From assembly GCF_003991155.1 (NCBI RefSeq), contig NZ_CP031293.1: a stretch of DNA of 64,000 nucleotides, one strand, 5' to 3'. The stretch comes from Escherichia coli. GTDB lineage: Bacteria; Pseudomonadota; Gammaproteobacteria; Enterobacterales; Enterobacteriaceae. The stretch's first letter is position 1. Each line of letters opens with the position of its first letter. Shown here in pieces: positions 10,561 through 46,877 of the stretch. The translations under genes were made by a program, and so were the position numbers. Below the pieces are notes generated by a model. That model was given only the letters and a program-made list of their open reading frames with translations. It ran no database searches and had not been told where the DNA came from.

Positions 10561-10735
10561 ACGTCACTATCCTTTTTTAATCTGCCGCTCATTTTACGCA
10601 TATGTCGGGCAAGTGAGAAACGCATTTCAGGATAATCCGCAATTTGCTGGCGCGATTCACCTGAGCGCAACATTGAGATTATTTGTTAAGATTGTTGCGG
10701 TCGCTTTACTCCATAAACATTGCAGGGAAAGTTTT

Positions 10736-11734
10736 ATGAAAACGTTAGGTGAATTTATTGTCGAAAAGCAGCACGAGTTTTCTCATGCTACCGGTGAGCT
10801 CACTGCTTTGCTGTCGGCAATAAAACTGGGCGCCAAGATTATCCATCGCGATATCAACAAAGCAGGACTGGTTGATATCCTGGGTGCCAGCGGTGCTGAG
10901 AACGTGCAGGGCGAGGTTCAGCAGAAACTCGACCTGTTCGCTAATGAGAAACTGAAAGCCGCACTGAAAGCACGCGATATCGTTGCGGGCATTGCCTCTG
11001 AAGAAGAAGATGAGATTGTCGTCTTTGAAGGCTGTGAACACGCAAAATACGTGGTGCTGATGGACCCCCTGGATGGCTCGTCCAACATCGATGTTAACGT
11101 CTCTGTCGGTACCATTTTCTCCATCTACCGCCGCGTTACGCCTGTTGGCACGCCGGTAACGGAAGAAGATTTCCTCCAGCCTGGTAACAAACAGGTTGCG
11201 GCAGGTTACGTGGTATACGGCTCCTCTACTATGCTGGTTTACACCACCGGATGCGGTGTTCACGCCTTTACTTATGATCCTTCGCTGGGTGTTTTCTGCC
11301 TGTGCCAGGAACGGATGCGCTTCCCGGAGAAAGGCAAAACCTACTCCATCAACGAAGGAAACTACATTAAGTTTCCGAACGGGGTGAAGAAGTACATTAA
11401 ATTCTGCCAGGAAGAAGATAAGTCTACCAACCGCCCGTATACCTCACGTTATATCGGTTCACTGGTCGCGGATTTCCACCGTAACCTGCTGAAAGGCGGT
11501 ATTTATCTCTACCCAAGCACCGCCAGCCACCCGGACGGCAAACTGCGTTTACTGTATGAGTGCAACCCGATGGCATTCCTGGCGGAACAAGCGGGCGGTA
11601 AAGCGAGCGATGGCAAAGAGCGTATTCTGGATATTATCCCTGAAACCCTGCACCAGCGCCGTTCGTTCTTTGTCGGCAACGACCATATGGTTGAAGATGT
11701 CGAACGCTTTATCCGTGAGTTCCCGGACGCGTAA
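10736..11734 (+). CDS. fbp: Fructose-1,6-bisphosphatase class I (332 aa)
   Basis: Translation from [15 protein letters not shown]...; ATG at 10736 gives 332 aa (ORF track begins at an upstream in-frame M). Confidence 0.95.
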
Positions 11735-11766
11735 GCTCCTGCGCCTCTCCACACGGAGAGGCGTTT

Positions 11767-12762
11767 TTATCGCTGCGCAATGTTGACTCTTGTCACAGGC
11801 GAACTCTGACGATTCTCCCATAGCACCGTTAATCCACGCTGTAAGGCAATAAAAATGAACAGCAAAATACCGATGGCGATTTTCGTCCACCAGGAACTCA
11901 GCGTGCCATCAAAGTTTATGTAAGTCTGAATCAGTCCCTGAATCGCCACGCCAAAAAGCGTCCCTAATACCGTTCCAACGCCACCACTCAAAAGCGTACC
12001 GCCAATTACCACTGAGGCGATAGCATCCAGTTCCACACCTACGCCCGCCAGTGCATATCCGGCCTGGGTATAAATCGAGAAGACAATCCCCGCCAGCGTT
12101 GCCAGTCCGGTGGAGAGCATATAAATGCGAATAGTGGTGCTGCGAGTGGAAATCCCCATCAGGTTTGCCGACGTTGCGTTGCCGCCAATGGCGTACACCT
12201 GATTACCAAAACGGGTACGATGCGCGAGGAATATGCCGATAACCACCACCGCCAGCATCAGCAGTCCCATCGCACTTAAGCGACCGCCGCCAGGGATTTT
12301 CCACGCAAGGCTTGAGAGCGTGTCATAAACAGGATGATTTATCGGGATCGACTCTTCTGAGATGAGATAGCTGACACCGCGCAAAAAGAACATCCCCGCA
12401 AGGGTAATGATAAACGCCGGGATCTTCAGCGCGTCGATCAGAAGCCCCATAAATGCGCCGAAGGCACAGCCCATCACCAACACCAGCGGAAACTCCAGCA
12501 GCGGCGAGAGGCCGAAATCGCCAATCACTTTTGCCAGAAACACGCCGGTAAAGGCGATCACCGAACCGACGGAGAGATCGATCCCACCGGAGAGGATCAC
12601 AAAGGTAATGCCAACGGCGATGATCCCAAGAAAGGCATTATCGGTCAGGATATTGCAGATCACTCTTGTGGAAGCAAAACCGGGAAACTGCGTCAGACAG
12701 TAGAGATAACCCAGCACAAAGACGCCGATAGTGATCATCAGCGGCAAGTTACGTTTTATCAC
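11767..12762 (-). CDS. yjfF: Galactofuranose ABC transporter permease (331 aa)
   Basis: Polytopic permease translation; ytfQRT-yjfF operon context. Confidence 0.9.
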   Translation of the reverse strand: MIKRNLPLMITIGVFVLGYLYCLTQFPGFASTRVICNILTDNAFLGIIAVGITFVILSGGIDLSVGSVIAFTGVFLAKVIGDFGLSPLLEFPLVLVMGCAFGAFMGLLIDALKIPAFIITLAGMFFLRGVSYLISEESIPINHPVYDTLSSLAWKIPGGGRLSAMGLLMLAVVVIGIFLAHRTRFGNQVYAIGGNATSANLMGISTRSTTIRIYMLSTGLATLAGIVFSIYTQAGYALAGVGVELDAIASVVIGGTLLSGGVGTVLGTLFGVAIQGLIQTYINFDGTLSSWWTKIAIGILLFIFIALQRGLTVLWENRQSSPVTRVNIAQR

Positions 12763-13774
12763 GGCTACGCACTCCTTTAATCAGACTGATAAAGCGTTGC
12801 GACTGAACAATCAGCACGCAAAGCACCACCACCGCTTTTACGACCTGGTTCATCTCCGGCGGAAAGCCAGAAAGCAAAATTCCGGTGTTCATTCCCTGAA
12901 TAATCAGCGCCCCCACCACCGAAAGCAGCAGGTTAAAGCGCCCGCCCATCAGCGATCCACCGCCAATAACCACTGCAAGAATGGCGTCCAGCTCCAGCCA
13001 TAATCCGGCGTTGTTGGCATCGGCACCGCGAATATCCGCCGCCACGATAATGCCCGCAATCGCCGCACACAGCCCGCTCAACACGTAGGTGAGCATGACG
13101 ATGATTCGCGTGTTAACTCCGGCATTTTTTGCCGCCCGAATGTTGATACCAACGGCTTCGATAAACATCCCCAGCGCCGTTTTGCGGGTCAACAGCCAGA
13201 AGAGGAGAAGCGTCAGTACCGCAATAATGACTGGTGTTGGCAGGAACAACAGCGATCCGCTGCCAAACCAGGAGAGATCCGGTGAGTTAAATGTGACGAT
13301 CTGTCCGGAGGTGATCAGTTGCGCCACGCCGCGCCCGGCGACCATCAGGATCAGGGTGGCGACAAACGGCTGAATTTTGAGGATCGCTACCAGTATGCCG
13401 TTCCACAATCCCGCCAGGATGCCAGTGCCCAGGGCGCTTAACAAAACAATCGGCAGGCTGAATCCCGCGACCGTCATCGCAGCCGTTGTGGCTCCGGCGA
13501 TAGCCATCACCGCCCCCACGGAGAGATCAATCCCACCAGTGGCGATCACCAGCGTCATACCAATCGCCAACAGCGCAACGGGGGCGGCGCGATTAAGAAT
13601 GTCGATAGGGCTACCGAACAAACGCCCATCCTGAAGCACAACCTGCCAGAAATGCGGGGCCACCAGACTGTCGACCAGCAGCACCAGCAATAGCGCTACC
13701 AGTTGCGGCATCCCCGTCGGCCAGCGAAAACGCCTTTTCGGCGGCGTAGTGTCCGGGAGAGATTGAGGCATCAC
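12749..13774 (-). CDS. ytfT: Galactofuranose ABC transporter permease (about 341 aa; GTG at 13774 or ATG at 13771)
   Basis: Translation ...MPQSLPDTTPPKRRFRWPTG...; AAGGAG RBS 6 nt upstream of GTG. Confidence 0.88.
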   Translation of the reverse strand: MMPQSLPDTTPPKRRFRWPTGMPQLVALLLVLLVDSLVAPHFWQVVLQDGRLFGSPIDILNRAAPVALLAIGMTLVIATGGIDLSVGAVMAIAGATTAAMTVAGFSLPIVLLSALGTGILAGLWNGILVAILKIQPFVATLILMVAGRGVAQLITSGQIVTFNSPDLSWFGSGSLLFLPTPVIIAVLTLLLFWLLTRKTALGMFIEAVGINIRAAKNAGVNTRIIVMLTYVLSGLCAAIAGIIVAADIRGADANNAGLWLELDAILAVVIGGGSLMGGRFNLLLSVVGALIIQGMNTGILLSGFPPEMNQVVKAVVVLCVLIVQSQRFISLIKGVRSRDKT

Positions 13775-13784
13775 ACTGTTCTCC

Positions 13785-15287
13785 TTACGCCGCAATGGCG
13801 TTCATGATCGCCGGAACGGAAAGCTCTGCCAGCGGGATCTCCGCCACCTGTTTGCGATCGCGCATGATAATCACCCGATCGGCATAGCCCACCAGTTCTT
13901 CCAGTTCGGAGGAGATCACCAGCAGCGCCAGTCCATCGGCGCACAGCGTTTCAATCAGGCGGATGATCTCGGCGTGGGCACCAACATCAATGCCGCGGGT
14001 TGGCTCATCGAGGATCAGAAATTGCGGTCGGGTCAGTAGCCAACGTGAAAGCAACACTTTTTGCTGATTGCCGCCGGAGAGAAATTCAATCGGTTGTTCA
14101 GTTGAAGGTGTGCGAATGCCAAGCTGGCGGATAAAGCGTTCGGCAATTTCTTGCTGTTCTTTGCGGGAAATCGGTCGTAGCCAGCCGCGCTGGGCCTGGA
14201 GAGCGAGGATGATATTTTCCCGCACCGAGGCGGCAGCGATGATGCCATCGGTTTTCCTGTCTTCCGGGCAGAAGCCGATACCCAGTACCGAAGCCTGATG
14301 TGGCGATCGCAGGGTTTGCGGTTTGCCTTTGATCAGCGCCGTGCCGCTGTCAGCAGGTTTGATACCGAAGATCACTTCGGCGGTTTCGGTACGTCCTGAT
14401 CCCAGCAACCCTGCCAGGCCGACGATCTCGCCGGGGCGCACTTCGAGATCAAACGGTGCGATCGTTCCTTTTTTGCCGTAATTTTTGAACGCTGCAACGG
14501 GTTTGTCGCTCAACAATGTTCGCCCGGCACGCTGTAGCGCGTGAGTGTCCAGCTCGCGCCCCAGCATCATTTTTACTAGTTCGATCTGCGGTAGCTCGCG
14601 GGTTTCCCGACAGCCTACGAAACTGCCGTTGCGTAAGACGGTGATCCGATCGCTGACCTGATAGACCTGATCGAGAAAGTGAGTAACGAAGATCAGGCTG
14701 ACGCCGCGATCGCGCAACTGCCGCATCAGGCCAAACAGTAACTCTACTTCCTGAGTGTCGAGACTGGCAGTGGGTTCATCGAGGATCAGCACTTTGGCAG
14801 AGAGATCGATAGCCCGGCAAATGGCGACGATTTGCTGCATCGCCACTGAAAAGCGGTTGAGCGGTTCGCGCACGTCGAGGGAGAAACCGTAAGATGCCAT
14901 CAGTTCGGTGGCGCGCTTTTCCATCTCTTTACGGCGTAGAAGGCCGAAACGTTTGGGTTCGCGACCTATGAATAGATTATCAGCGACCGACATATTGGGT
15001 AGCAGGTTGACTTCCTGATAGACGGTGCCGATGCCGAGTTGTTGTGCGTGGGCGGTATTTTTCGGTGAGATTGCCTGGCCTTCCAGCCAGATGGTGCCGC
15101 GATCGGCGTGGTATACACCGGTTAAGGCTTTGATTAGCGTTGATTTTCCCGCCCCGTTTTCACCGAGCAGCGCCATAATTTCGCCGCGGCGCAGGCTGAA
15201 ATCAACGTTGTCTAACGCTTTGACGCCGGGGAAAAATTTACTTAATCCTTCGGTGCGGAGGATTTCCTGGTGTTGGTTAGTATTCAT
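13785..15287 (-). CDS. ytfR: Galactofuranose ABC transporter ATP-binding protein, duplicated ABC domains (500 aa)
   Basis: Translation from MNTNQHQEILRTEGLSKFF with two Walker A/LSGG motifs; RBS GGGGGAA upstream of ATG at 15287. Confidence 0.92.
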   Translation of the reverse strand: MNTNQHQEILRTEGLSKFFPGVKALDNVDFSLRRGEIMALLGENGAGKSTLIKALTGVYHADRGTIWLEGQAISPKNTAHAQQLGIGTVYQEVNLLPNMSVADNLFIGREPKRFGLLRRKEMEKRATELMASYGFSLDVREPLNRFSVAMQQIVAICRAIDLSAKVLILDEPTASLDTQEVELLFGLMRQLRDRGVSLIFVTHFLDQVYQVSDRITVLRNGSFVGCRETRELPQIELVKMMLGRELDTHALQRAGRTLLSDKPVAAFKNYGKKGTIAPFDLEVRPGEIVGLAGLLGSGRTETAEVIFGIKPADSGTALIKGKPQTLRSPHQASVLGIGFCPEDRKTDGIIAAASVRENIILALQAQRGWLRPISRKEQQEIAERFIRQLGIRTPSTEQPIEFLSGGNQQKVLLSRWLLTRPQFLILDEPTRGIDVGAHAEIIRLIETLCADGLALLVISSELEELVGYADRVIIMRDRKQVAEIPLAELSVPAIMNAIAA

Positions 15288-36380: not shown

Positions 36381-37019
36381 ATGCCCGGGCGCTTTGAACT
36401 AAAACCAACCCTGGAGAAAGTCTGGCACGCGCCGGACAATTTTCGCTTCATGGACCCGCTGCCGCCGATGCATCGTCGGGGGATCATTATTGCCGCCATT
36501 GTATTGGTAGTCGGATTTCTGCTTCCATCTGATGATACGCCCAACGCGCCAGTGGTGACGCGTGAAGCGCAGTTAGATATTCAGTCGCAATCACAACCAC
36601 CGACAGAAGAACAGCTGCGGGCGCAATTAGTCACGCCACAAAATGATCCTGATCAGGTGGCTCCGGTCGCTCCAGAACCAATACAGGAAGGCCAGCCAGA
36701 AGAGCAGCCGCAAACCACCCATACGCAACCATTCCAGCCAGATAGCGGAATTGATAATCAATGGCGCTCCTATCGTGTCGAACCCGGTAAAACGATGGCG
36801 CAGCTGTTCCGCGACCACGGACTGCCCGCTACCGATGTCTATGCCATGGCGCAGGTAGAAGGCGCGGGTAAGCCGCTGAGTAATTTGCAAAACGGGCAGA
36901 TGGTGAAAATCCGCCAGAACGCCAGCGGCGTGGTGACGGGCTTAACCATTGATACGGGGAATAATCAACAGGTCCTGTTTACCCGCCAGCCGGATGGCAG
37001 TTTTATTCGTGCGCGGTAG
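36381..37019 (+). CDS. ytfB: OapA/LysM-domain cell-division protein YtfB (212 aa)
   Basis: Translation from [29 protein letters not shown]...; GGAGG RBS before ATG at 36381. Confidence 0.9.
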
Positions 37020-37650
37020 ATGAAGGGTCAACCAAAAGCCAGCTAAGGATTGTCTCTTTGATGACCTTACGTCTGGCTTCCAGTGCCTGGGGTGAAACCA
37101 TACTGATGTGATAAACCAGGCCAAGCGTATGCTGGTTGATCAAATAATATCCCCCAAGCGCAGCAATATTAATATTCACCTGCAATGGGTCGATATCTGG
37201 CTTAAAAATATTGTGTTTCTTCCCTTCATCCAATAAGGATTCCATTAACTGCAAGTGCGCATGGTTAATTTCTAAAAGACGCTGTGACTTTGCATAATGC
37301 ACACCCTTACTTTGATTTTCACTATGCACAATTTTTAAAAACCAGGGATTAGAAATATAATAATCCCATGTAAAATCGATTATTTTCTCAATGGCTTTCT
37401 GTGGCGGAAGATCTGAGAAATCAAGGGCCTTTTCTTTTTGTCGAATATCGTTCCAGGTATATTCCAGTACTTCGATAAATAAATTTTCTTTATTACCAAA
37501 GTGGTGATAAACCGTCTGTTTACTGCACCCTGCTGCCTTGACAATATTATCGACTCTGGCCCCTTCGTAACCATATTCGGCAAATTCATTAACCGCGCAT
37601 AACAGCAGCTTTTCTTTCAGGCTCTGTACGTTGCTGGTATCAAGATACAT
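37003..37650 (-). CDS. TetR-family transcriptional regulator (215 aa), divergent from accessory operon
   Basis: N-terminal HTH signature ...[34 protein letters not shown]...; 3' end overlaps ytfB 3' end by 17 bp; AT-rich codon usage by eye. Confidence 0.85.
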
Positions 37651-37684
37651 AACGCTTCCCCACGACCTCTTCGTGGTGACTATC

Positions 37685-37746
37685 ATAACCTGATTTGATT
37701 TCAGCTTCAGAAAAAAGGGCAAAAACTTGTACTTTCATCAGGTTAT
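37685..37746. promoter_or_regulatory. Inverted repeat ATAACCTGAT ... ATCAGGTTAT in divergent TetR/operon intergenic region
   Basis: Read directly; 10-bp arms about 42 bp apart. Confidence 0.4.
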
Positions 37747-37773
37747 CAAATGTCCTGTGATCGCCATCGCATA

Positions 37774-37793
37774 TCAACCAACTAGATGGTTGA
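37774..37793. promoter_or_regulatory. Perfect palindrome TCAACCA-ACTAGA-TGGTTGA; candidate TetR operator about 70 bp upstream of first operon gene
   Basis: Read directly; 7-bp arms, 6-bp spacer, located in promoter region. Confidence 0.5.
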
Positions 37794-37862
37794 TCTTTTT
37801 ATCATCCAGTCGCAAGCTAATCATCACCAAGGAAACAAAATTCAAAAAAAGAGAGCTATTGT

Positions 37863-38654
37863 ATGAAATCCACTCGTCCTGTTGCCGTGATTACCGGAGC
37901 CGCTCGTGGTATTGGAAAGGGCTGTGCGCTGGAGCTTGCGCGTGGCGGATTTAATCTGCTGATTAATGATCGTCCGGATGCGGATAGCGTAGAAAAATTA
38001 CATGCCACACAACAAGAATGTCTGGCGGAAGGCGTGGAAGTGATTTGCTTCCCTGCTGATGTGGGCGATCTCTCCCTTCATGAAGAGATGCTCGACGCGG
38101 CGCAAAACCAGTGGGGACGTCTGGACTGTCTACTCAACAACGCAGGCATTTCAGTGAAAAAACGCGGTGACCTCCTCGACCTCGAACCAGACAGCTTCGA
38201 TCAAAACATTGCCATTAACACCCGCGCGCCGTTCTTCCTTGCTCAGGCATTCAGTAAGCGCTTACTGGCACAGCCGAAACCGGAAGCAGAACTGCCGCAC
38301 CGCTCGATTATTTTTGTCAGTTCCATCAACGCCATCATGCTGGCGATGAATCGCGGCGAATATACCATTGCCAAAACTGCCGTCTCCGCCGCAGCTCGTC
38401 TGTTTGCCGCTCGCCTTTGCAATGAACAAATTGGCGTTTATGAAGTGCGCCCTGGTCTCATCAAAACTGATATGACTATTCCGGCAACGGCTTATTACGA
38501 CGAACTGATTGCCAAAGGTCTGGTGCCGTGGGGACGTTGGGGTTATCCGGCTGATATTGCTTCCACTGTCCGCGCGATGGCGGAAGGTAAACTGATTTAC
38601 ACCTGCGGTCAGGCGGTTGCCATCGACGGCGGCTTAAGTATGCCGCGCTTCTGA
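37863..38654 (+). CDS. Short-chain dehydrogenase/reductase (SDR), 263 aa
   Basis: TGAARGIG Rossmann motif, NNAG, catalytic YxxxK (YTIAK) in translation. Confidence 0.85.
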   Translation: MKSTRPVAVITGAARGIGKGCALELARGGFNLLINDRPDADSVEKLHATQQECLAEGVEVICFPADVGDLSLHEEMLDAAQNQWGRLDCLLNNAGISVKKRGDLLDLEPDSFDQNIAINTRAPFFLAQAFSKRLLAQPKPEAELPHRSIIFVSSINAIMLAMNRGEYTIAKTAVSAAARLFAARLCNEQIGVYEVRPGLIKTDMTIPATAYYDELIAKGLVPWGRWGYPADIASTVRAMAEGKLIYTCGQAVAIDGGLSMPRF

Positions 38655-38663
38655 GGCTGAATC

Positions 38664-39506
38664 ATGAGAGATCTGTTACAACGCCCGGATTTATTCAGTA
38701 TCAATACCGCAACACTGGGCTATAAAACGCCGCTACCCGCCATTATTGATGCCTGCGCCGCACGCGGTATTGGCGCAATTGCCCCCTGGCGCAGGGAGTT
38801 GCAGGGTGAAGATCTCCAGCAAATCGCCCGCCAGCTTGCTGCCAGTAACATAAACGTTTCCGGTTTGTGCCGTAGCACCTACTACACCGCACCGACGCTG
38901 GCGGAGCGCAAACTGGCGATTGACGATAACCGCCGGGCGCTGGACGACGCCGCTGTACTGAACGCTGCCTGTTATATGCAGGTGGTTGGCGGTCTGCCAA
39001 TGGGAACAAAAGATCTGTACGAAGCGCGGGAACAGGTGAAACAAGGGATTCGCCAGTTGCTGCCACATTCGAAAGATGTCGGTGTGCCAATTGCACTGGA
39101 GCCACTGCACCCGATGACTGCTGCCGATCGTTCTTGTCTGTGCACGTTACGTCAGGCGCTGGACTGGTGTGATGAACTCGATCCCGATGGCGAATTTGGC
39201 CTCGGCGTGGCGGTAGATGTCTACCATGTCTGGTGGGATCCGGATCTCGCCAGTCAGATCCTGCGTGCCGGAAAACGCATCCTCGCGTTTCATGTTTCCG
39301 ACTGGTTAGTGCCGACCACCGATCTGGTCAATGACCGTGGAATGCCGGGAGATGGTGTCATCAATATTCCGTCAATTCGTCGGCTGGTTGAAAACGCCGG
39401 ATTTAATGGCGCTATTGAACTGGAAATATTCTCACCGTATTGGTGGCAGCAAGATATTGACAGCACACTGGATATTAGCGTCGATCGCATCGCGCATTAT
39501 TGCTAA
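38664..39506 (+). CDS. Xylose-isomerase-like TIM-barrel protein (sugar-phosphate isomerase/epimerase or dehydratase family), 280 aa
   Basis: Family-level resemblance of the translation to IolE/hydroxypyruvate-isomerase-type TIM barrels; 10-nt gap from SDR with GAGG RBS. Confidence 0.65.
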   Translation: MRDLLQRPDLFSINTATLGYKTPLPAIIDACAARGIGAIAPWRRELQGEDLQQIARQLAASNINVSGLCRSTYYTAPTLAERKLAIDDNRRALDDAAVLNAACYMQVVGGLPMGTKDLYEAREQVKQGIRQLLPHSKDVGVPIALEPLHPMTAADRSCLCTLRQALDWCDELDPDGEFGLGVAVDVYHVWWDPDLASQILRAGKRILAFHVSDWLVPTTDLVNDRGMPGDGVINIPSIRRLVENAGFNGAIELEIFSPYWWQQDIDSTLDISVDRIAHYC

Positions 39507-39515
39507 GGAATAATC

Positions 39516-40292
39516 ATGAGTGACCAACCCGTTCTGTTCAGCAGAGCGGCGGCTTCTTGCCGCCTGACATTGAACCGTGAAGATAAATGTCATGCTATTA
39601 ATGAAGAAATGATCGAATCTCTCGACCATTATTTAAATGAAATTGAAAATGACACGGCATTACGCTTAGTCGAATTAACGGCAACCGGCGATAAATTCTT
39701 TTGTGCGGGCGGCGATATTAAATCGTGGTCGGCCTATTCGCCATTAGATATGGGCAGAAAATGGATTAAACGCGGTAACGAGGTTTTTAATCGCCTGCGC
39801 AATTTACCCCAATTAACGGTTGCAAATCTCAACGGTCATACCATTGGCGGTGGGATTGAACTCGCCTTGTGCTGCGATATTCGTATTGCCCGCCCCGGCG
39901 CGAAATTCTCTAACCCGGAAGTGATGCTCGGCATGGTGCCTGGCTGGATGGGCATTGAACGCGTGCTTAATCAGGTTGGCCCGGTGGTCGGTCGCCAGAT
40001 GCTGATGCTGGGTAAACGCCTGACGGCGCAGGAAGCTCAGGCGGCGAATTTAATTGATGAAGTGGTAGAAAAAGAACAGGTGGAAAGCTGGATGGCGAAT
40101 CAGTTAGCGCAGCTGGAAAAATGCGGTCCGGTGGCGCTCGCACATATCAAGCAACTGATTCTGGCACTGGAAAATAAACATGCTGATTACCCGCACCAGT
40201 TACTGGCTGGATTAATGTCCGCCACTCAGGATTGCCAGCAGGCGACGCGCGCCTTTGCCGAAAAAAGTAGCGTGAGCTTCCAAAATCAATAA
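39516..40292 (+). CDS. Crotonase-fold enzyme (enoyl-CoA hydratase/isomerase family), 258 aa
   Basis: FCAGGDIK and GHTIGGGIELALCCDIRIA oxyanion-hole motifs in translation. Confidence 0.85.
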   Translation: MSDQPVLFSRAAASCRLTLNREDKCHAINEEMIESLDHYLNEIENDTALRLVELTATGDKFFCAGGDIKSWSAYSPLDMGRKWIKRGNEVFNRLRNLPQLTVANLNGHTIGGGIELALCCDIRIARPGAKFSNPEVMLGMVPGWMGIERVLNQVGPVVGRQMLMLGKRLTAQEAQAANLIDEVVEKEQVESWMANQLAQLEKCGPVALAHIKQLILALENKHADYPHQLLAGLMSATQDCQQATRAFAEKSSVSFQNQ

Positions 40293-40301
40293 GGAAATTG
40301 T

Positions 40302-41843
40302 ATGCGTAAGATAACAACCACCGAGACACTGGCGGCGCAAATTCAGGACGGCGCAACCATTGCCATTAGCGGTAATGGCGGCGGAATGGTGGAAGCGGAC
40401 CATATTCTGGCTGCTATTGAAGCGCGTTTCCTGCAAACCGGACACCCGCGCGATCTGACATTAATCCACTCGCTGGGCATTGGCGATCGCGACTGCAAAG
40501 GCACTAACCGCTTCGCTCATGCAGATATGCTCAAACGCATCATTGCCGGGCACTTTACCTGGTCGCCCAAAATGCAGGCGCTGGTAAAAAATAACACGAT
40601 TGAAGCCTACTGCTTTCCTGGTGGCGTGATTCAGGCACTGCTACGGGAGATCGGCGCCGGACGTCCGGGGCTTTTTACCCACGTTGGGCTGGGATCGTTT
40701 GTTGATCCACGCAATGGCGGCGGTAAGTCGAATGAATGCACGACCGACGACCTGGTAGAACTGATTGAAATCGATGGTGAAACCAAACTTCGTTATCGCC
40801 CTTTCAAAGTGGATTACGCGATTTTGCGTGGCACTTATGCCGATCCACGAGGCAACGTCAGCCTCGAAGAAGAGGCGATTGATATGGATAGCTATTCGAT
40901 GGCGCTGGCAGCACACAACAGCGGCGGCAAAGTGTTCGTACAGGTACGCGATGTGCTGGAAGCTGGCGCGATTGAACCACGCCGGGTCAAATTACCGGGC
41001 ATTCTGGTTGATGGCATCGTTGAACACCGCGAACAACCGCAAACCTATCTTGGCGGTTACGACCTGACCATTAGCGGTCAACATCGCCGTCTGAGTTCTA
41101 ACGACGCTATTGAACTGGTTAGTCATCCAGTACGCCGCCTGATTGCCCGTCGGGCAGCACGCGAACTGGTGGCTGGCGCTTCAACCAACTTTGGCTTTGG
41201 TATTCCTGGCGGTATTCCAGGCGTAGCGCTGCGCGAAGGCGTTCCTTACCAAAGTTTATGGCTGAGCGTCGAGCAAGGTGTACATAACGGCATGATGCTG
41301 GATGATGCGTTCTTCGGCTGCGCCCGCAACGCCGACGCCATTATTCCATCACTCGATCAATTTGAGTTCTACAGTGGCGGAGGGATCGATATCACCTTCC
41401 TCGGCATGGGAGAGATGGATCAGTACGGTAACGTCAACGTCTCCCATCTCAATGGCAATCTGATTGGCCCCGGCGGATTTCTCGAAATTGCGCAAAACGC
41501 CCGTAAAGTGGTGTTCTGCGGCACGTTCGACGCCAAAGGTAGCAAGATCGATGTAACGCCAGATGGCTTGCATATCGCCCAGTCAGGTCAAATCCCTAAA
41601 CTGGTTACCCAGGTGGAAAAAATCACTTTTAGCGCCGCCTACGCACAGCAAAGCGGTCAGGAAGTGTTGTATATCACTGAACGTGCAGTATTCCAGTTAA
41701 CGGCAGAAGGCGTTGAATTAATTGAAATCGCACCGGGTGTGGAGATTGAGCGCGACATTCTGCCGTATATGGCTTTCCGTCCAATTATCAAGCACCCACG
41801 CCTGATGGAAAGTAGCCTGTTTACGCCGATGGAGGATGCATGA
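40302..41843 (+). CDS. Fused alpha/beta family I CoA-transferase (acyl-CoA:acetate/3-ketoacid CoA-transferase, YdiF-like), 513 aa
   Basis: Translation parallels remembered E. coli YdiF along its length (e.g. ITERAVF.L...G..LIEIAPGV..E.DIL near C-terminus). Confidence 0.8.
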   Translation: MRKITTTETLAAQIQDGATIAISGNGGGMVEADHILAAIEARFLQTGHPRDLTLIHSLGIGDRDCKGTNRFAHADMLKRIIAGHFTWSPKMQALVKNNTIEAYCFPGGVIQALLREIGAGRPGLFTHVGLGSFVDPRNGGGKSNECTTDDLVELIEIDGETKLRYRPFKVDYAILRGTYADPRGNVSLEEEAIDMDSYSMALAAHNSGGKVFVQVRDVLEAGAIEPRRVKLPGILVDGIVEHREQPQTYLGGYDLTISGQHRRLSSNDAIELVSHPVRRLIARRAARELVAGASTNFGFGIPGGIPGVALREGVPYQSLWLSVEQGVHNGMMLDDAFFGCARNADAIIPSLDQFEFYSGGGIDITFLGMGEMDQYGNVNVSHLNGNLIGPGGFLEIAQNARKVVFCGTFDAKGSKIDVTPDGLHIAQSGQIPKLVTQVEKITFSAAYAQQSGQEVLYITERAVFQLTAEGVELIEIAPGVEIERDILPYMAFRPIIKHPRLMESSLFTPMEDA

Positions 41844-43921
41844 GCCAGCTTGATGACACCCTCCTTGATGCGCTGACACACGTCACTTTCCCAAAGGGTT
41901 TTGTGTCAGCAGAGCCAGCGTCAATTGTCACGGTTGAAGATGTCGATTACCCGATCTGGCAAGTTGATGCGCTAGTCGTTGGTAGCGGCGCAGCAGGATT
42001 ACGTGCGGCAGTTGAACTTAAACGCCGCCAGCAAAATGTGCTGATCGCCACCGCCGGGTTATATATGGGGACATCGGCATGTTCTGGCTCTGATAAACAG
42101 ACGCTGTTTACCGCCGCTACCGCGGGCAACGGCGATAACTTCGCCAAACTGGCGGAAGCACTGGCGAGCGGTGGGGCGATGGATCATGACACCGCTTATG
42201 TCGAAGCGGTAGGTTCTCTGCACACTCTTGGCGGGTTGCAATATCTTGGTCTGGAATTACCGGAAGATCGCTATGGCGCGATTCTTCGTTATCAAACCGA
42301 CCATGACGAAGCCGGGCGTGCAACCTCGTGTGGGCCGCGTACCTCAAGGTTAATGGTGAAAGTGCTGTTGGAAGAAGTACAGCGCCTCGCCATTCCAGTG
42401 TTGACCAGTGCAACAGTGATTAAACTGCTGCATCAGCGTGACGAAAACGGCGAAGACCGTGTGGCGGGGGCAATCCTCGCGACCGGTCATCGCGCCCTTA
42501 ACCCATGGGGGCTGGCAATTGTGACTGCGCCCAATGTGGTACTGGCAACAGGAGGGCCTGGCGAGCTTTATCGCGACAGTGTGTACCCACACAAATGTTT
42601 TGGCTCGCTGGGGCTGGCGCTGGAGGAAGGCCTGACACTAACTAATCTGACCGAAAGCCAGTTTGGTATAGGCACGCCGCGCAGCACGTTTCCGTGGAAT
42701 TTGTCCGGCACCTATGTGCAGGTGATCCCATATATCTATTCCGTGGATGCTGAGGGTAACGAGTATAACTTCCTCGCGGATTACTATCGCACCACCCAGG
42801 AGCTGGCTTCAAACATCTTCCGTAAAGGCTATCAGTGGCCGTTCCACGCCACGCGGGTAATGGATTTTGGCTCCAGCTTGTTAGATATGGCGGTGGCGCA
42901 AGAGCAGCAATCAGGGCGTCAGGTATTTATGGATTTCAATCGTAATCCTGTAGCGGTGCCTGGTGATTTGCCCTTCTCATTAGATCGACTGGACGACGAC
43001 GTTCGCGCGTATCTGGAAAATAACGACGCTCTGGCACCATCGCCCATCGAACGACTGCAACGAATGAATCCGCTGTCTATCTCGCTGTATAAGATGCACG
43101 GTTACGATCTCACCACGCAGCCATTGCAGTTTGCCATGAATAATCAGCACATGAATGGCGGCATTGAAGTCGATATCTGGGGACAAACATCTCTGCCCGG
43201 TTGTTTTGCAGTGGGGGAAGTTGCTGGCACACACGGCGTCACCCGACCTGGCGGCGCGGCGTTGAATGCCGGGCAGGTTTTTGCTGTTCGTCTGGCGCGC
43301 TTTATTGGTTGCACGCAAAAGCGGAATATTGATGGAGATATTGCACAGCTGGCAGCTCCGGCACTGGCTTCTATAAGAGAGATCATTACTCAGGCGCACG
43401 ATAACGGGACCGGGATGCCGTTGTCGATTGTGAGAGAAAAAATTCAGGCACGAATGTCTGACTATGCGGGATTTATTTGCCATGCCGATAAAGTTCGACG
43501 TGCCACTCGTGATGCCCTGCTATTGAGTGAATTTGTCCAACAGCATGGATTGGCAATCAAACATGTGGGCGAAGTTGCCGAGCTGTTTATGTGGCGGCAT
43601 ATGGCACTGACTTCTGCCGCCGTATTAACGCAATTGACGCATTATATTGACGCAGGTGGTGGTAGCCGGGGAGCACGTATTATTCTCGACAGTGATGGAA
43701 ATTCTATTCCGCAAACACGAAATGGTTTTTGTGATGCCTGGCGCTTTCGTTCAGAGCGTACTGAGGATAAAAAAGATAAACTACTTATTCATTATTGCAA
43801 CGGTATCTTTCACGTCAGAGAAACACCTGTTCGTGAGTTTCCTATTATCCGAGGTATTTGGTTTGAAAAAAACTGGCCTGGTTTTCTTAATGGGACAATT
43901 TACCAGCCACAGGATGAATGA
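41840..43921 (+). CDS. FAD-dependent oxidoreductase of the fumarate reductase/succinate dehydrogenase/L-aspartate oxidase flavoprotein family with long C-terminal extension, 693 aa
   Basis: N-terminal DALVVGSGAAGLRAAVE dinucleotide fold, TGGPGELY, and C-terminal GGIEVD...GCFAVGEVAGT-HG..R.GG.AL motif; ATGA overlap with upstream gene and GGAGG RBS. Confidence 0.75.
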   Translation: MSQLDDTLLDALTHVTFPKGFVSAEPASIVTVEDVDYPIWQVDALVVGSGAAGLRAAVELKRRQQNVLIATAGLYMGTSACSGSDKQTLFTAATAGNGDNFAKLAEALASGGAMDHDTAYVEAVGSLHTLGGLQYLGLELPEDRYGAILRYQTDHDEAGRATSCGPRTSRLMVKVLLEEVQRLAIPVLTSATVIKLLHQRDENGEDRVAGAILATGHRALNPWGLAIVTAPNVVLATGGPGELYRDSVYPHKCFGSLGLALEEGLTLTNLTESQFGIGTPRSTFPWNLSGTYVQVIPYIYSVDAEGNEYNFLADYYRTTQELASNIFRKGYQWPFHATRVMDFGSSLLDMAVAQEQQSGRQVFMDFNRNPVAVPGDLPFSLDRLDDDVRAYLENNDALAPSPIERLQRMNPLSISLYKMHGYDLTTQPLQFAMNNQHMNGGIEVDIWGQTSLPGCFAVGEVAGTHGVTRPGGAALNAGQVFAVRLARFIGCTQKRNIDGDIAQLAAPALASIREIITQAHDNGTGMPLSIVREKIQARMSDYAGFICHADKVRRATRDALLLSEFVQQHGLAIKHVGEVAELFMWRHMALTSAAVLTQLTHYIDAGGGSRGARIILDSDGNSIPQTRNGFCDAWRFRSERTEDKKDKLLIHYCNGIFHVRETPVREFPIIRGIWFEKNWPGFLNGTIYQPQDE

Positions 43922-43941
43922 TATTGCAAAGGTTAATCACT

Positions 43942-44418
43942 ATGCGAAATATAATTAGATCTATTAATGCTCTACTTGCAGCATTGAACATTACCATTTT
44001 GGCGATCATCGTGGCATGTGTGACGTGGCAGGTGGCTGCACGATTTATATTTACTAGTCCCAGTATTTTTACAGATGAACTCAGCCGTTTGCTCTTTATT
44101 TGTCTTGGACTTTTTGGTGGGGCATACACCGCAGGGCAAAACCGGCATCTGGCGATTGACCTGATACCTATGATGCTGAAAGGAAAAGCCCGACGTCATT
44201 TATTTTTGTGTATTCAGATTATCGTTATTATCTTCGCTACCATCATTATGGTATATGGTGGTGGGCTATTAACGATGGATACATTCGATTCAGGTCAGAC
44301 CTCGCCCGCTTTAGGCTGGCAAATGGGATATATCTATATGAGCATCCCGATGAGTGGTGTACTTATTATTATATACACCATAGATATGGTTTTAACCGAA
44401 CTTAAACAACCACTCTAA
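43942..44418 (+). CDS. TRAP transporter small permease (DctQ family); alternative start 43918 overlapping upstream stop
   Basis: Short hydrophobic 4-TM-type translation MRNIIRSINALLAALNITILAIIVACVTWQ...; gene order Q-M-P. Confidence 0.8.
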   Translation: MRNIIRSINALLAALNITILAIIVACVTWQVAARFIFTSPSIFTDELSRLLFICLGLFGGAYTAGQNRHLAIDLIPMMLKGKARRHLFLCIQIIVIIFATIIMVYGGGLLTMDTFDSGQTSPALGWQMGYIYMSIPMSGVLIIIYTIDMVLTELKQPL

Positions 44419-44460
44419 AGATAACAAACAACAACCAACCATAGTAGGAATGGAGAAATT

Positions 44461-45762
44461 ATGGATTACTGGTTACCGATTATTGTGTTATTTGGTGCCT
44501 TCTTTTTTATGTTGGCATTAGGTGTACCTATTGTTTATGCCATTGGTTTATCGACACTGGCATCAATTTCCACACAACTCGATTTCAACTCAGCATTGAG
44601 TGTGGTTTCCCAAAAGTTAGCCTCCGGGTTAGATAGTTTTACGTTGTTGGCAATCCCATTTTTTATCTTGTCTGGCAACATTATGAATCATGGAGGAATA
44701 GCGCGACGATTAATCAACTTTGCCCGTATTCTCGGCGGTCGTCTGCCAGGCTCACTTGCCCACTGTAATATTCTCGCCAATATGCTGTTCGGGGCAATTT
44801 CTGGTTCAGCCGTGGCTTCGGCGGCTGCGATGGGCGGCGTCATGCATCCGCAACAGGTTAAAGAGGGCTACGACCCGGCATTCAGTACTGCGGTTAACGT
44901 TGCCTCTGCCCCGACGGGTTTGCTTATTCCACCAAGTAATACGTTAATCGTCTATTCACTGGTCAGTGGTGGTACTTCTATTGCCGCACTGTTTCTGGCG
45001 GGTTATGTTCCGGGAATTTTGCTGGGTCTGGCACTGATGGTAATAGCCGGTATTATCGCGGTACGTCGCGGTTATCCAAAGCCAGAACGCCCGACTTTAC
45101 GCCAGGCTGGCGTTGCGATATGGATGGCTATCCCCAGTATTTTCCTGATTATTTTAATTATGGGGGGTGTATTAAGTGGTATTTTTACCCCGACAGAGGC
45201 CTCCGCAATTGCAGTAATTTATACCCTTTTCCTTGCACTGGTTCTTTATCGTGAAATCTCAGTTAAAGATTTACCTAAAATATTTCTGGAATCCGTTATT
45301 ACCACTGCAATTGTCTTGTTATTAATTGGTTCTTCGATGGGAATGTCATGGGCGATGTCAAACGCTGACGTTCCCTTCCTGATTCTCGATTTGCTTAACA
45401 CTATTTCTGACAACCCAATAATAATCCTGCTTATTATCAATATTATCCTGTTGATTATCGGCACTTTTATGGATATGACACCGGCGGTACTGATTTTTAC
45501 GCCGATATTTTTACCGGTTGTCACCGAACTGGGCATGGACCCGATTCACTTTGGTATTGTCATGGTACTGAACATGTGTATCGGTATTTGTACTCCGCCT
45601 GTAGGCAGTGTGTTATTTGTCGGTTGTAGTGTATCTAAATTACCGATTAATAAAATTATCAAACCTATGCTGCCATTTTATGCCGTGATGGTATTGGTGC
45701 TGGCAATGGTGACCTATATTCCGCAAATCAGTATGGCATTGCCAAGAGCACTGGGTTACTGA
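44461..45762 (+). CDS. TRAP transporter large permease (DctM family), 433 aa
   Basis: Polytopic translation MDYWLPIIVLFGAFFFMLALGVPIVYAIGL... typical of DctM. Confidence 0.85.
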   Translation: MDYWLPIIVLFGAFFFMLALGVPIVYAIGLSTLASISTQLDFNSALSVVSQKLASGLDSFTLLAIPFFILSGNIMNHGGIARRLINFARILGGRLPGSLAHCNILANMLFGAISGSAVASAAAMGGVMHPQQVKEGYDPAFSTAVNVASAPTGLLIPPSNTLIVYSLVSGGTSIAALFLAGYVPGILLGLALMVIAGIIAVRRGYPKPERPTLRQAGVAIWMAIPSIFLIILIMGGVLSGIFTPTEASAIAVIYTLFLALVLYREISVKDLPKIFLESVITTAIVLLLIGSSMGMSWAMSNADVPFLILDLLNTISDNPIIILLIINIILLIIGTFMDMTPAVLIFTPIFLPVVTELGMDPIHFGIVMVLNMCIGICTPPVGSVLFVGCSVSKLPINKIIKPMLPFYAVMVLVLAMVTYIPQISMALPRALGY

Positions 45763-45814
45763 TGCGCATTCACTGGCGGCACCTGCCGCCATATTTATTA
45801 GAAAAGGAACATCT

Positions 45815-46786
45815 ATGAAAATAAAAGTATCCGCTGGCATTATCGGTGCTGTTCTTATGTTATCCGCAAGCCAGTCCTGGGCAGTGACATTAAAACTGAG
45901 TCATAATCAGGATAAGTCTCATCCTGTTCATAAAGCGATGGAGTTCTTTGCGAAAAAGAGCAAAGAGTACTCTAACGGTGATATTACTATTCGTATTTAT
46001 CCAAATGGAACATTGGGTACTCAACGAGAAACAATGGAGCTGATTCGTTCTGGCGCTATTCCACTGGTAAAAACCAACGCGGCAGAAATGGAAGCATTTG
46101 AAAATTCCTATAAATTATTTAGCCTGCCTTATTTGTTCCGCGATCGTGATCATTATTATCAGGTCATGCAGGGCGATATCGGGAGAAAAATCCTCGACTC
46201 AACGAAAAGCAAAGGTTATTTCGGGCTGACTTTTTATGATGGAGGCGCCCGCAGTTTCTACGGCAATAAACCAGTACTGAAACCAGACGATCTCAAAGGC
46301 ATGAAAGTCCGTGTCCAGCCAAGTCCTGGCGCAGTTGAAATGATCAAAGTCATGGGCGGTAACCCGACGCCACTGGATTACGGCGAGTTGTATACAGCCT
46401 TACAGCAGGGTGTGGTCGATATGGCAGAAAACAGCGTGATGGCGCTGACCACCATGCGTCACGGTGAAGTGGCAAAATCCTTCAGCCTTGACGAACACAC
46501 TATGGTTCCCGATGTGGTTCTGATGAGCAATGCTGCGTTTGATAAACTTAGCCCGGAAAATCAGGCAGTTATATTAAAAGCAGCTAAAGAATCAATGAGC
46601 TACATGAAAGACTTGTGGAGCGAGGAAGAGAAACAAGAATTTGCAAAACTGGATAAAATGGGCGTGAAAGTCTACCAGGTAGATAAAGCTCCGTTTATCG
46701 AGAAAGTACAGCCAATGTACGCAAACTTCGCTAAGGACAACCCAGCCCTTGCCCCAATGCTGGCTGATATTCAGGCAGCTAAGTAA
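45815..46786 (+). CDS. TRAP transporter periplasmic substrate-binding protein (DctP family), 323 aa
   Basis: Signal peptide MKIKVSAGIIGAVLMLSASQSWA then DctP-like SBP translation; AAAGGA RBS. Confidence 0.85.
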   Translation: MKIKVSAGIIGAVLMLSASQSWAVTLKLSHNQDKSHPVHKAMEFFAKKSKEYSNGDITIRIYPNGTLGTQRETMELIRSGAIPLVKTNAAEMEAFENSYKLFSLPYLFRDRDHYYQVMQGDIGRKILDSTKSKGYFGLTFYDGGARSFYGNKPVLKPDDLKGMKVRVQPSPGAVEMIKVMGGNPTPLDYGELYTALQQGVVDMAENSVMALTTMRHGEVAKSFSLDEHTMVPDVVLMSNAAFDKLSPENQAVILKAAKESMSYMKDLWSEEEKQEFAKLDKMGVKVYQVDKAPFIEKVQPMYANFAKDNPALAPMLADIQAAK

Positions 46787-46849
46787 TTATCTTCGTAGGG
46801 CTGCTTATTGTGGCCCTTATCGATATCTGCAAGTGCTCGCTACAAAAGC

Positions 46850-46877
46850 AAAACGCCGACCAATGGTCGGCGTTTTT
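46850..46877. terminator. Bidirectional rho-independent terminator (ACGCCGACC-AATG-GTCGGCGT flanked by A-run and T-run) between dctP-like gene and rplI
   Basis: Perfect 9-bp stem with flanking A/T tracts on both sides. Confidence 0.8.

Follow-up and report, generated by a model that had tools for sequence, protein, structure and literature searches.

The DNA considered here is a stretch of 64,000 nucleotides (the window) from the Escherichia coli chromosome NZ_CP031293.1 (assembly GCF_003991155.1). Between ytfB upstream and the convergent rplI-rpsR-priB-rpsF operon downstream it carries a nine-gene unit at 37003-46786. One repressor gene, of the TetR family and on the minus strand, stands divergent from eight co-directional genes on the plus strand (37863-46786), of which five encode enzymes, namely a short-chain dehydrogenase/reductase (SDR), a xylose-isomerase-like triosephosphate isomerase (TIM) barrel, a crotonase, a coenzyme A (CoA)-transferase and a FrdA-like flavin adenine dinucleotide (FAD) flavoprotein, and three encode a tripartite ATP-independent periplasmic (TRAP) transporter. 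The gene calls agreed with the RefSeq annotation of the identical chromosome of strain 2016C-3878, and the preliminary description of this DNA was borne out in that all nine open reading frames (ORFs) are intact and keep the order claimed for them. The unit is a conventional-looking catabolic operon with an unprecedented combination of enzymes, among them a flavoprotein from a subfamily without a known function.

The first three spacers between the enzyme genes are of 9 nt each, the last two of these genes overlap by 4 nt (ATGA), and the TRAP genes are preceded by spacers of 18, 42 and 52 nt. The spacers of 0-10 nt or ATGA overlaps reported earlier for the whole row hold for the five enzyme genes and not for the TRAP genes. 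The dctQ start at 43918, if used, would replace the 18-nt spacer by an ATGA overlap with the flavoprotein stop. A Shine-Dalgarno-like motif was found before every gene, in keeping with the strong ribosome-binding sites noted earlier. Judged from the spacing, co-transcription of the eight genes is likely, and a shared terminator is predicted after dctP. The sigma-70 and terminator scans as a whole gave chance-level results and located no promoter. The GC-rich hairpin in the 52-nt dctM-dctP gap is a possible attenuator or RNA-processing signal and could determine how much binding protein is made relative to the membrane subunits. GC content was 0.40 in the TetR gene, 0.41-0.45 in the TRAP genes, 0.50-0.55 in the enzyme genes and 0.55 in ytfB, and the AT-richness first noticed by eye in the TetR and TRAP genes is therefore real; likewise, no integrase or insertion sequence (IS) is annotated by RefSeq beside the unit in this strain.

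Table 1. Features of the locus (positions in the window, except for the last row, where they refer to the loci named)
Feature	Position	Strand	Basis
TetR/AcrR-family regulator, 215 aa	37003..37650	-	ORF, RefSeq annotation, weak TetR-family NCBIfam matches
CRP-like site TGTGATCGCCATCGCA	37756..37771	+	At most one mismatch; sole such match in the 64-kb window
Near-perfect 18-bp palindrome CAACCAaCTAGaTGGTTG	37775..37792	+	Invariant block across Escherichia, Klebsiella and Salmonella
Classical SDR oxidoreductase, 263 aa	37863..38654	+	NF009386, 420 bits (cut-off 250), generic name '3-ketoacyl-ACP reductase'
Xylose-isomerase-like TIM-barrel protein, 280 aa	38664..39506	+	PDB 3qc0, 3ju2, E about 9e-86
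Crotonase-family enoyl-CoA hydratase/dehydratase, 258 aa	39516..40292	+	NCBIfam and PDB matches
Fused family-I CoA-transferase, 513 aa	40302..41843	+	PDB 2ahu (YdiF), E 5e-114
FrdA/SdhA/NadB-like FAD flavoprotein, 693 aa	41840..43921	+	Pfam FAD_binding_2, residues 43-475 only
3' end of flavoprotein gene, part of swapped cassette	43680..43921	+	Breakpoint near 43680; compared with L002 12678-12910
TRAP small membrane subunit DctQ	43942..44418 (alternative start 43918)	+	Annotation; weak YiaM match
TRAP large membrane subunit DctM	44461..45762	+	TIGR00786, 458 bits (cut-off 268)
GC-rich hairpin TGGCGGCA-CC-TGCCGCCA, dctM-dctP gap	45774..45791	+	Terminator-like scan; weak T-run
TRAP periplasmic solute-binding protein DctP	45815..46786	+	TIGR00787, 248 bits (cut-off 175)
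Predicted bidirectional intrinsic terminator, common to convergent rplI	46850..46876	.	12-bp stem, 7 G-C pairs, T-runs on both sides
Sister-cluster loci	L092 (Caballeronia) 3366-8819; L094 (S. meliloti pSymA) 1023-10624; L095 (Rhizobium NLR16a) 539-13898; L091; L093

Enzymes, regulator and binding protein

The enzyme classes given in the preliminary description were found to be right on NCBIfam, Pfam and Protein Data Bank (PDB) matches and on motifs. The first enzyme carries the marks of a classical SDR (TGAARGIG at 11-18, NNAG at 92-95, S153/S154 and Y167-x3-K171); its nearest structures, 4da9 and 4one, bear generic names (SDR/3-oxoacyl-ACP reductase). Identity with FabG was rejected on score (TIGR01830, 126.5 bits against a cut-off of 297.75) and on the position of the gene in a catabolic operon. 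The closest structures of the TIM barrel are both of the uncharacterised Sinorhizobium meliloti protein SMc04130, and its orthologues bear Pfam AP_endonuc_2, which places it in the fold. All its NCBIfam matches (IolO, hydroxypyruvate isomerase, fructoselysine 3-epimerase FrlC and 2-oxo-tetronate isomerase) were below threshold, and membership of the IolO, Hyi, OtnI, FrlC, DPEase or UlaE families was rejected (27.7 against 300 bits for IolO, 24.7 against 353 for Hyi, 21 against 325 for OtnI). The protein is likely, from these resemblances, a metal-dependent isomerase, epimerase or eliminase of keto-acids or keto-sugars. The catalytic glutamates of rat enoyl-CoA hydratase, E144 and E164, lie in GGG-x-E and P-E motifs, and the crotonase has both (E115 in GGGIE and E135 in NPE); it matched short-chain hydratases and dehydratases best, its best structure being 3-hydroxypropionyl-CoA dehydratase (5zai), and scored below every equivalog cut-off. 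The CoA-transferase has paralogues in E. coli YdiF and in enzymes of the propionate CoA-transferase type (Pct). It aligned to YdiF over its full length, with Glu324 opposite YdiF Glu333, which we take to be the catalytic glutamate that forms the glutamyl-CoA thioester.

The flavoprotein is the least conventional of the five. Its C-terminal third (about 220 residues) had no Pfam match, and its NCBIfam matches (TfrA, NadB and SdhA/FrdA) were 5- to 20-fold under their cut-offs. An AlphaFold2 model (pLDDT 88) searched with Foldseek returned the SdhA/FrdA/NadB/AprA fold at 13-19% identity, and a full-library search at E<1e-30 gave a family of 424 clusters at 50% identity. In an alignment of 22 diverse family members H437 and R469 were invariant; these are presumably the equivalents of the carboxylate-binding His355 and Arg390 of FrdA. 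Other residues invariant in the family are K86, R160, E272, Q274, W286, N287, Y292, K329, R360 and R610. At the position of FAD attachment in FrdA, placed by what we take to be its covalent-FAD histidine motif, the protein reads SACSGSDKQ, without histidine. RefSeq annotation gives no Fe-S or membrane-anchor (frdB/C/D-like) gene in the operon, and a Pfam search found no NADH-, flavin mononucleotide (FMN)- or haem-binding donor domain in the protein. A role as complex II FrdA/SdhA was rejected (TIGR01812, 82.6 bits against 567; no partner subunits; no flavinylation histidine), as was that of TfrA, with a score far under the cut-off and no partner subunits. L-Aspartate oxidase, NadB, is usually about 530-540 aa long, and this identity was rejected too (TIGR00551, 100 bits against 453; 693 aa with an extra C-terminal region). 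Because the H437/R469 pair is invariant, the flavinylation histidine is missing and genes for Fe-S or anchor subunits are absent, the protein would be a soluble, probably non-covalent flavoenzyme that acts beside a free carboxylate. With soluble members of the superfamily (fumarate reductase, L-aspartate oxidase, urocanate and acrylate reductases) it shares FAD_binding_2, the fold, the conserved His/Arg pair of the presumed carboxylate-binding motif and the lack of a membrane or Fe-S partner; it differs from them in the low identity, in having no donor domain and in family-specific capping-domain motifs.

Fusions of the CoA-transferase and the flavoprotein, of about 970-1080 aa, were seen among database entries (proteins P0003, P0035 and P0080). 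Presumably the stop codon within the ATGA overlap at 41840-41843 was lost in these; alternatively, the fusions may reflect errors of sequencing or annotation.

The TetR orthologues of Klebsiella and Salmonella bear Pfam TetR_N and TetR_C_29, and the gene exhibited a ratio of nonsynonymous to synonymous divergence (dN/dS) of 0.04-0.05 against those genera. Translation most likely begins at the ATG at 37650, in line with the annotation and with the Klebsiella and Salmonella genes, and not at the TTG at 37722 proposed earlier. Six sequences of the TetR-SDR intergenic region from Escherichia, Klebsiella and Salmonella were aligned (mean identity 80%), and they share one invariant block, the 18-bp palindrome. 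It occurs once in the window, where chance would give 0.02 matches, and lies directly downstream of the CRP-like site. The number of CRP-like sites in the window was not above chance; the half-sites are conserved in Klebsiella and Salmonella and are there nearer to the consensus. A TetR-family protein and a conserved palindrome, as expected of a TetR-regulated divergon, are seen here at the sequence level; the palindrome is probably a TetR operator and the adjacent site probably one for CRP activation. A second inverted repeat of 10 bp (ATAACCTGAT ... ATCAGGTTAT, at 37686-37695 and 37739-37748, about 45 bp apart) was noticed by eye in the TetR-proximal half of the region and is partly conserved in the other genera.

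All three components of a TRAP transporter (DctPQM) are encoded together; for DctQ, the K. huaxiensis orthologue (166 aa) bears Pfam DctQ. The structures nearest to DctP were 4ovr, 4x8r, 4n8y and 4n15, which are probably hexuronate complexes from the Enzyme Function Initiative screen. Outside the operon, its nearest relatives (54-57% identity) stand in glucuronate clusters of Vibrio (uxaC-uxuB-uxuA-kdgK, with glycosidases including a GH2 family protein) and Aeromonas (uxaC-uxuB-uxuA-kdgK-eda), where the TRAP genes adjoin these hexuronate (Ashwell) pathway genes and none of the five enzymes of the operon is shared. DctP keeps 57 of the 61 positions conserved across 16 members of this clade, and by this comparison it groups with a hexuronate-associated clade of solute-binding proteins (SBPs).

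Distribution, loss and exchange of carriers

Of the complete E. coli genomes, 5426 in number, 3114 (57%) were found to have the enzyme block (37863-43500), 1445 the TRAP cassette and 1685, at the TRAP position, a gene of the anion:cation symporter (ACS) family of the major facilitator superfamily (MFS); carriers of the operon include Nissle 1917 and ATCC 25922. E. albertii and E. marmotae have orthologues too. Between ytfB and rplI the gene order recurs unchanged in Klebsiella oxytoca and Salmonella enterica, both with an MFS gene, and in K. huaxiensis, with a TRAP system whose SBP is about 80-84% identical to E. coli DctP. Compared with Klebsiella and Salmonella, the genes exhibited dN/dS values of 0.03-0.07, and dS was above 1 (saturated) and similar to that of ytfB. 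Since the site is shared by three genera, dN/dS is low and dS is saturated, the comparison indicates an ancestral locus, not a recent island, that has been selected and has been lost in many E. coli genomes by more than one kind of lesion. Recent acquisition of the enzyme block was rejected on its native GC, its synteny in the three genera and its ytfB-like dS. Of the earlier proposal of an old island lost in K-12, the age and the loss stand and the island does not. In the K-12 lineage (strain J53) the ytfB-rplI interval holds a TetR pseudogene lacking the N-terminus (ytfA), then yjfZ, and nothing else, in agreement with the earlier statement on K-12 and with the suggestion that ytfA is the relic of the TetR gene.

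Other operon-less genomes, of the O157:H7 type and others, carry a TetR remnant split by IS609, an element of the IS200/IS605 family with tnpA and insQ/TnpB (for example NZ_CP062769.1, 4922957-4925107). In strain X14-3 (NZ_CP084055.1, 3406076-3409960) IS1 stands in place of the five enzyme genes, with the TetR and TRAP genes kept; this deletion is an independent route of loss.

The enzyme block is followed, at one and the same position, by either the TRAP cassette or the ACS-family MFS carrier. Uptake by a TRAP system, as first proposed, fits the genes of this strain and is one of two alternatives, other strains having the MFS cassette. Genomes with the MFS cassette align with the query only to its base 6678 (about 43680 in the window). 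The last 90 or so residues of the flavoprotein are 48-64% identical between TRAP and MFS alleles, against 94-100% upstream, and the 3' segment of the TRAP allele has a GC of 0.39 and a GC at third codon positions (GC3) of 0.27. By these measures the TRAP cassette and the last 80 or so codons of the flavoprotein gene are a low-GC replacement, and because both the breakpoint and the allele divergence fall inside the flavoprotein gene, the alignments indicate that the cassettes have been exchanged by recombination there. An independent insertion of the TRAP cassette was rejected on the position of the breakpoint and on the allele-specific 3' end, which encodes a homologous C-terminus; the donor would therefore already have had a flavoprotein gene joined to TRAP genes. 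The two interchangeable cassettes show cleanly how, in nature, recombination within an operon can replace one carrier by another. In ATCC 25922 (locus L002, 14423-16186) a frameshifted hipA toxin gene and a helix-turn-helix (hipB-like) gene lie between the MFS gene and rplI, an arrangement of the MFS-type (B2) strains.

Related clusters and the candidate substrate

The neighbours of flavoprotein relatives were surveyed in 80 loci, one genome being scanned per species. The nearest relative outside the syntenic group was found in Brenneria roseae, with the order TetR-SDR-TIM barrel-flavoprotein (74%, 70% and 59% identity for the last three) followed by a PcaK-like aromatic-acid/H+ symporter of the MFS. 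Pseudescherichia, Phytobacter, Mangrovibacter and Escherichia sp. ESNIH1 have TetR-SDR-Gfo/Idh/MocA-TIM barrel-MFS-flavoprotein. The TIM barrel, Gfo/Idh/MocA protein, SDR and flavoprotein are likewise clustered in Lentisphaeria (L009), a betaproteobacterium (L017) and two Opitutia (L023, L040), and in a planctomycete (L049) the Gfo/Idh/MocA protein and the flavoprotein were called as ORFs and the other two found by tblastn. In Rhizobiales and Rhodobacteraceae the flavoprotein gene accompanies a sugar ATP-binding cassette (ABC) system, two glucose-methanol-choline (GMC) oxidoreductases, LacI, a levoglucosan-dehydrogenase-like Gfo protein and a kinase like that for 2-keto-3-deoxygluconate (KDG); in Rhizobium sp. 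CCGE531 this sugar ABC/GMC/flavoprotein operon starts with a CoA-transferase, an enoyl-CoA hydratase and an aldehyde dehydrogenase. A CoA-transferase and a crotonase occur with the flavoprotein in Devosia, Rhodobacter, Rubellimicrobium, a betaproteobacterium, a member of the Desulfobacterales and a gut member of the Clostridia. The betaproteobacterial and Desulfobacterales loci add an AcrC-like acyl-CoA dehydrogenase (ACAD) and a MaoC dehydratase, with EtfBA in the former, and the clostridial locus has a GH38 mannosylglycerate-hydrolase-like protein, a D-2-hydroxyacid dehydrogenase and a fructuronate-reductase-like protein.

When plasmids were searched with the TIM-barrel protein, homologues of 40-54% identity turned up in clusters of a sister architecture, carried by Caballeronia, Paraburkholderia, Chelatococcus, S. 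meliloti (pSymA) and Rhizobium. By annotation alone, these clusters have an SDR ('3-ketoacyl-ACP reductase'), a CoA-transferase and an enoyl-CoA hydratase; TetR is present in most, and that of Caballeronia has an ACS-type MFS carrier. In place of the flavoprotein stands a DUF993 protein (Pfam PF06187; PDB 4dnh, 'uncharacterized protein'), and an ACAD with EtfBA, the electron-transfer flavoprotein (ETF), is often added; Rhizobium NLR16a also has the ETF-quinone oxidoreductase and S. meliloti a glycerate kinase. Three blocks recur: the SDR and TIM barrel, sometimes with Gfo; the CoA-transferase and crotonase, sometimes with ACAD/ETF; and a third that is either the FrdA-like flavoprotein or the DUF993 protein. 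Because they recur across lineages, the E. coli operon is, by gene content, one variant of a widespread, modular and uncharacterised family of pathways.

As stated in the preliminary description, no named pathway matches. None of the enzymes reached a specific curated family, and no characterisation of the cluster or published function was found in the full-text literature, in which subscription journals are thinly covered. DUF993, SMc04130 and the gene set of the operon go unmentioned in Price 2022 and in the bioRxiv precursor of Price et al. 2018. A close analogy is the E. coli carnitine pathway (caiTABCDE and fixABCX), which likewise lacks a thiolase and combines a dedicated transporter and a CoA-recycling CoA-transferase with a dehydratase of the crotonase family and a flavoprotein that does redox chemistry at the alpha,beta bond. 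By this analogy the logic of the operon, with CoA as a transient handle, resembles that pathway more closely than classical beta-oxidation. The parts differ, however: CaiB is a family-III transferase and CaiA an ETF-dependent ACAD, where the operon has a family-I transferase and a FrdA-like protein, and the carrier is of the betaine/choline/carnitine transporter (BCCT) family instead of TRAP or ACS-MFS; the TetR regulator, SDR and TIM barrel are additional here. A canonical beta-oxidation cycle was rejected, since the operon has neither an ACAD nor a thiolase; the FrdA-like protein could conceivably take the ACAD role. The claim that a thiolase is lacking was upheld, and a logic like that of cai or of beta-oxidation fits the gene content here and in the related clusters. 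The SMc04130-type clusters of S. meliloti share a homologous TIM barrel and, by annotation, the SDR, CoA-transferase and enoyl-CoA hydratase; they differ in having DUF993 for the flavoprotein and often ACAD and EtfBA, and what is available for them is structural-genomics structures only. The E. coli ydiF-ydiO-ydiQRST-fadK cluster has the YdiF paralogue, and related loci of the operon pair the transferase with ACAD and ETF; ydi lies at another locus with other partner enzymes, and the operon has no ACAD or ETF. A CoA-dependent route for a sugar acid in an enterobacterium is provided by 2-deoxyribonate oxidation, with MFS uptake, CoA-bound intermediates, a dehydrogenase and a CoA-transferase (Price et al. 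2019, PMC6365646). The K. michiganensis cluster BWI76_RS23695-23730 encodes a CoA synthetase, a beta-hydroxyacyl-CoA dehydrogenase, a thiolase, a CoA-transferase and a glycerate kinase, and the gene set also has a lactonase (PMC6365646). Identity with this cluster was rejected, the gene set and locus being different and the FrdA-like flavoprotein, TIM barrel and crotonase being absent there.

Four carboxylate-type carriers have been recruited at or beside the enzyme set (TRAP, two ACS-family MFS carriers only 50% identical to each other, and the aromatic-acid/H+ symporter-family MFS of Brenneria), which argues for an anionic substrate. The best guess, put at slightly under even, is a sugar-acid-like hydroxy-carboxylate of four to seven carbons, most likely, on comparative grounds, a sugar acid related to hexuronates or aldonates. 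It is based on the DctP relatives in glucuronate clusters, on the kinase, aldolase and glycerate-kinase neighbours and on the likeness of the TIM barrel to keto-acid isomerases; furthermore, the operon has no kinase or aldolase, while the E. coli core has KdgK, Eda, KduID and glycerate kinases. The fatty-acid-like and hydroaromatic substrates listed first in the preliminary description give way here, the comparative context pointing more to a sugar-acid-like one. The operon would then be a substrate-inducible catabolic one for an imported hydroxylated monocarboxylic acid, a mechanism that as a whole stands at even chances. The divergent TetR protein would repress the operon at the palindrome, CRP activating at the adjacent site, and the substrate would enter as an anion through the TRAP system or, in other strains, an ACS-family MFS symporter. 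The SDR would oxidise a secondary hydroxyl to a ketone, beside which the TIM barrel would isomerise, epimerise or eliminate. The YdiF/Pct-type transferase would lend CoA from acetyl-CoA to the carboxylate, and the crotonase would add or remove water across the alpha,beta bond of the thioester; CoA chemistry is suggested by the retention of Glu324 and of both crotonase glutamates, and by the recurrence of the transferase-crotonase pair with the flavoprotein or with SDR-TIM in unrelated lineages. The flavoprotein would carry out a two-electron step at the carbons beside a free carboxylate, in either direction between an enoate and the saturated acid, or from a 2-hydroxy to a 2-oxo acid. The operon having no thiolase, kinase or aldolase, the product would be passed to core enzymes (KdgK/Eda, glycerate kinase or short-chain acyl-CoA enzymes). 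In a more specific form, considered quite unlikely, the operon would be a new route for a host- or diet-derived sugar acid in which CoA is lent, the beta-hydroxyl eliminated and the enoate reduced (or formed), with the TIM barrel in charge of the key rearrangement or C-C step in place of a thiolase or aldolase. If true, a sugar acid would here be dehydroxylated or respired in a 'cai-like' way, and a first function would fall to a flavoprotein family of over 400 sequence clusters and, by extension, to the sister clusters that have DUF993.

Several observations weigh against a sugar acid and this mechanism. E. coli already has ExuT and UxaC for hexuronates. DctP departs at four clade-conserved positions, including N207S in the AEN-N motif, and its ligand is therefore probably not plain glucuronate; the sequence suggests one related to, and not identical with, glucuronate. 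The Brenneria relative lacks the CoA-transferase and the crotonase and uses an aromatic-acid-type MFS carrier. No enzyme of the operon reached a substrate-specific curated model in NCBIfam. In Foldseek and sequence searches of the PDB and AFDB50 the flavoprotein returned a generic fold and close AFDB neighbours that are all unnamed, and no partner that would give it electrons or take them up is evident. What holds for contexts at 36-55% identity may not carry over to E. coli, and the ACAD and ETF of some related clusters suggest aliphatic or alicyclic acyl-CoA chemistry rather than that of sugars.

A different direction and purpose, compatible with several substrates, would be those of an electron sink on the pattern of the carnitine pathway, in which an imported beta-hydroxy acid is CoA-activated and dehydrated, and the enoate is released and reduced by the flavoprotein for anaerobic redox balance or respiration. 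The shared parts (transporter, CoA-transferase, crotonase, flavoprotein, no thiolase) favour it, the characterised proteins closest to the flavoprotein are fumarate reductases, TfrA and NadB, the family is present in strict anaerobes and gut bacteria (Enterocloster, Victivallis, Succinatimonas, Halanaerobium), and AcrC-like acyl-CoA reductases/dehydrogenases with ETF stand in related loci. Nevertheless, this sink is considered unlikely. The flavoprotein lacks a donor domain for NADH, FMN or haem as well as an Fe-S partner gene, soluble NadB-like enzymes mostly act as dehydrogenases or oxidases, a pure dehydroxylation would leave the SDR and TIM barrel with no obvious role, and the CRP-like site suggests a carbon-source operon. 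The resemblance of Brenneria, a tree pathogen whose PcaK-like symporter accompanies the SDR, TIM barrel and flavoprotein, is one argument for a hydroaromatic or alicyclic acid (like quinate, shikimate or a hydroxycyclohexanecarboxylate). The SDR and TIM barrel would then be a cyclitol dehydrogenase and dehydratase, the flavoprotein would act on a ring double bond conjugated to the carboxylate, and the CoA-transferase and crotonase would work as in bad/ali pathways. The AP_endonuc_2 family includes 3-dehydroshikimate and inosose dehydratases, the ACADs of related loci scored 303-315 bits against cyclohexane-1-carbonyl-CoA dehydrogenase, and quinate is a carbocyclic analogue of a pyranuronate that an SBP of the uronate clade could conceivably bind. 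Even so, the TIM barrel exhibited no detectable similarity to dehydroshikimate dehydratase models in an NCBIfam profile search, those ACADs scored higher against AcrC (360-375 bits), with all scores under the cut-offs, many contexts hold sugar ABC transporters, KDG kinase, Eda or glycerate kinase, and no downstream pathway for aromatic or alicyclic compounds is encoded in the E. coli operon; a hydroaromatic substrate is distinctly unlikely.

Small acids of three or four carbons (3-hydroxypropionate/acrylate, glycerate/hydroxypyruvate, 3-hydroxybutyrate/crotonate) would employ the transferase as a Pct-type enzyme, the crotonase as a 3-hydroxyacyl-CoA dehydratase, the flavoprotein on an enoate or 2-hydroxyacid, the TIM barrel as a hydroxypyruvate-isomerase-like protein and the SDR on a semialdehyde or hydroxy acid. 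The best crotonase structure, the YdiF/Pct type of the transferase, the AcrABC-like genes in flavoprotein loci L014 and L072, the D-2-hydroxyacid dehydrogenase genes adjoining the flavoprotein gene in L040, L049 and L085, the weak likeness of the TIM barrel to hydroxypyruvate and 2-oxo-tetronate isomerases and the glycerate kinase of the S. meliloti sister cluster all fit such a module. It is judged quite unlikely: DctP belongs to a hexuronate-associated clade with most conserved positions kept, a dedicated high-affinity TRAP or ACS carrier with five enzymes is elaborate for a C3 acid and all the similarity scores are generic. Finally, absence or deletion in about 43% of complete E. coli genomes and the independent lesions (K-12 replacement, IS609 insertion and IS1 deletion) could be taken as signs of a decaying, functionless remnant hitch-hiking by a ribosomal-protein operon. 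With all genes intact here and catalytic residues kept, low dN/dS over saturated synonymous divergence, gene order kept in three genera and a transporter replaced by another functional carboxylate carrier rather than lost, this is extremely improbable.

The locus marks a well-defined and readily testable gap, overlooked by K-12-centred work, in the metabolism of E. coli, Klebsiella and Salmonella. Although no organism is better annotated than E. coli, and although the operon is present in about 57% of its complete genomes and has been under strong purifying selection since before the split of Escherichia, Salmonella and Klebsiella, its absence from K-12 has left it with no assigned substrate. 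Were the substrate found, models of how the gut and urinary tract are colonised would gain a nutrient or electron acceptor, and a large and phylogenetically wide subfamily of FrdA-like flavoproteins would receive a first function. Knowing the substrate would also explain structural-genomics orphans (the 3ju2/3qc0 TIM barrel, the 4da9-related SDRs and the 4dnh-related DUF993 protein) and provide a TetR/operator pair responsive to a new ligand.

Distant members of the flavoprotein family (36-40% identity) in the Planctomycetota-Verrucomicrobiota-Chlamydiota group exhibited an SDR-Eda-flavoprotein(-kinase) arrangement, and such contexts, by uvrA and mtnA, were rejected as a guide for E. coli as too distant. 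In metagenome-assembled genomes of Phycisphaerae (L079 and L075, 2598-13159) the genes of a conserved block are uvrA, an old yellow enzyme (OYE)-GltD fusion, SDR, an Eda-like aldolase, the flavoprotein and mtnA, with a KDG-kinase-like gene in L075 only, which hints at a housekeeping rather than an accessory role for the homologue of Planctomycetota.

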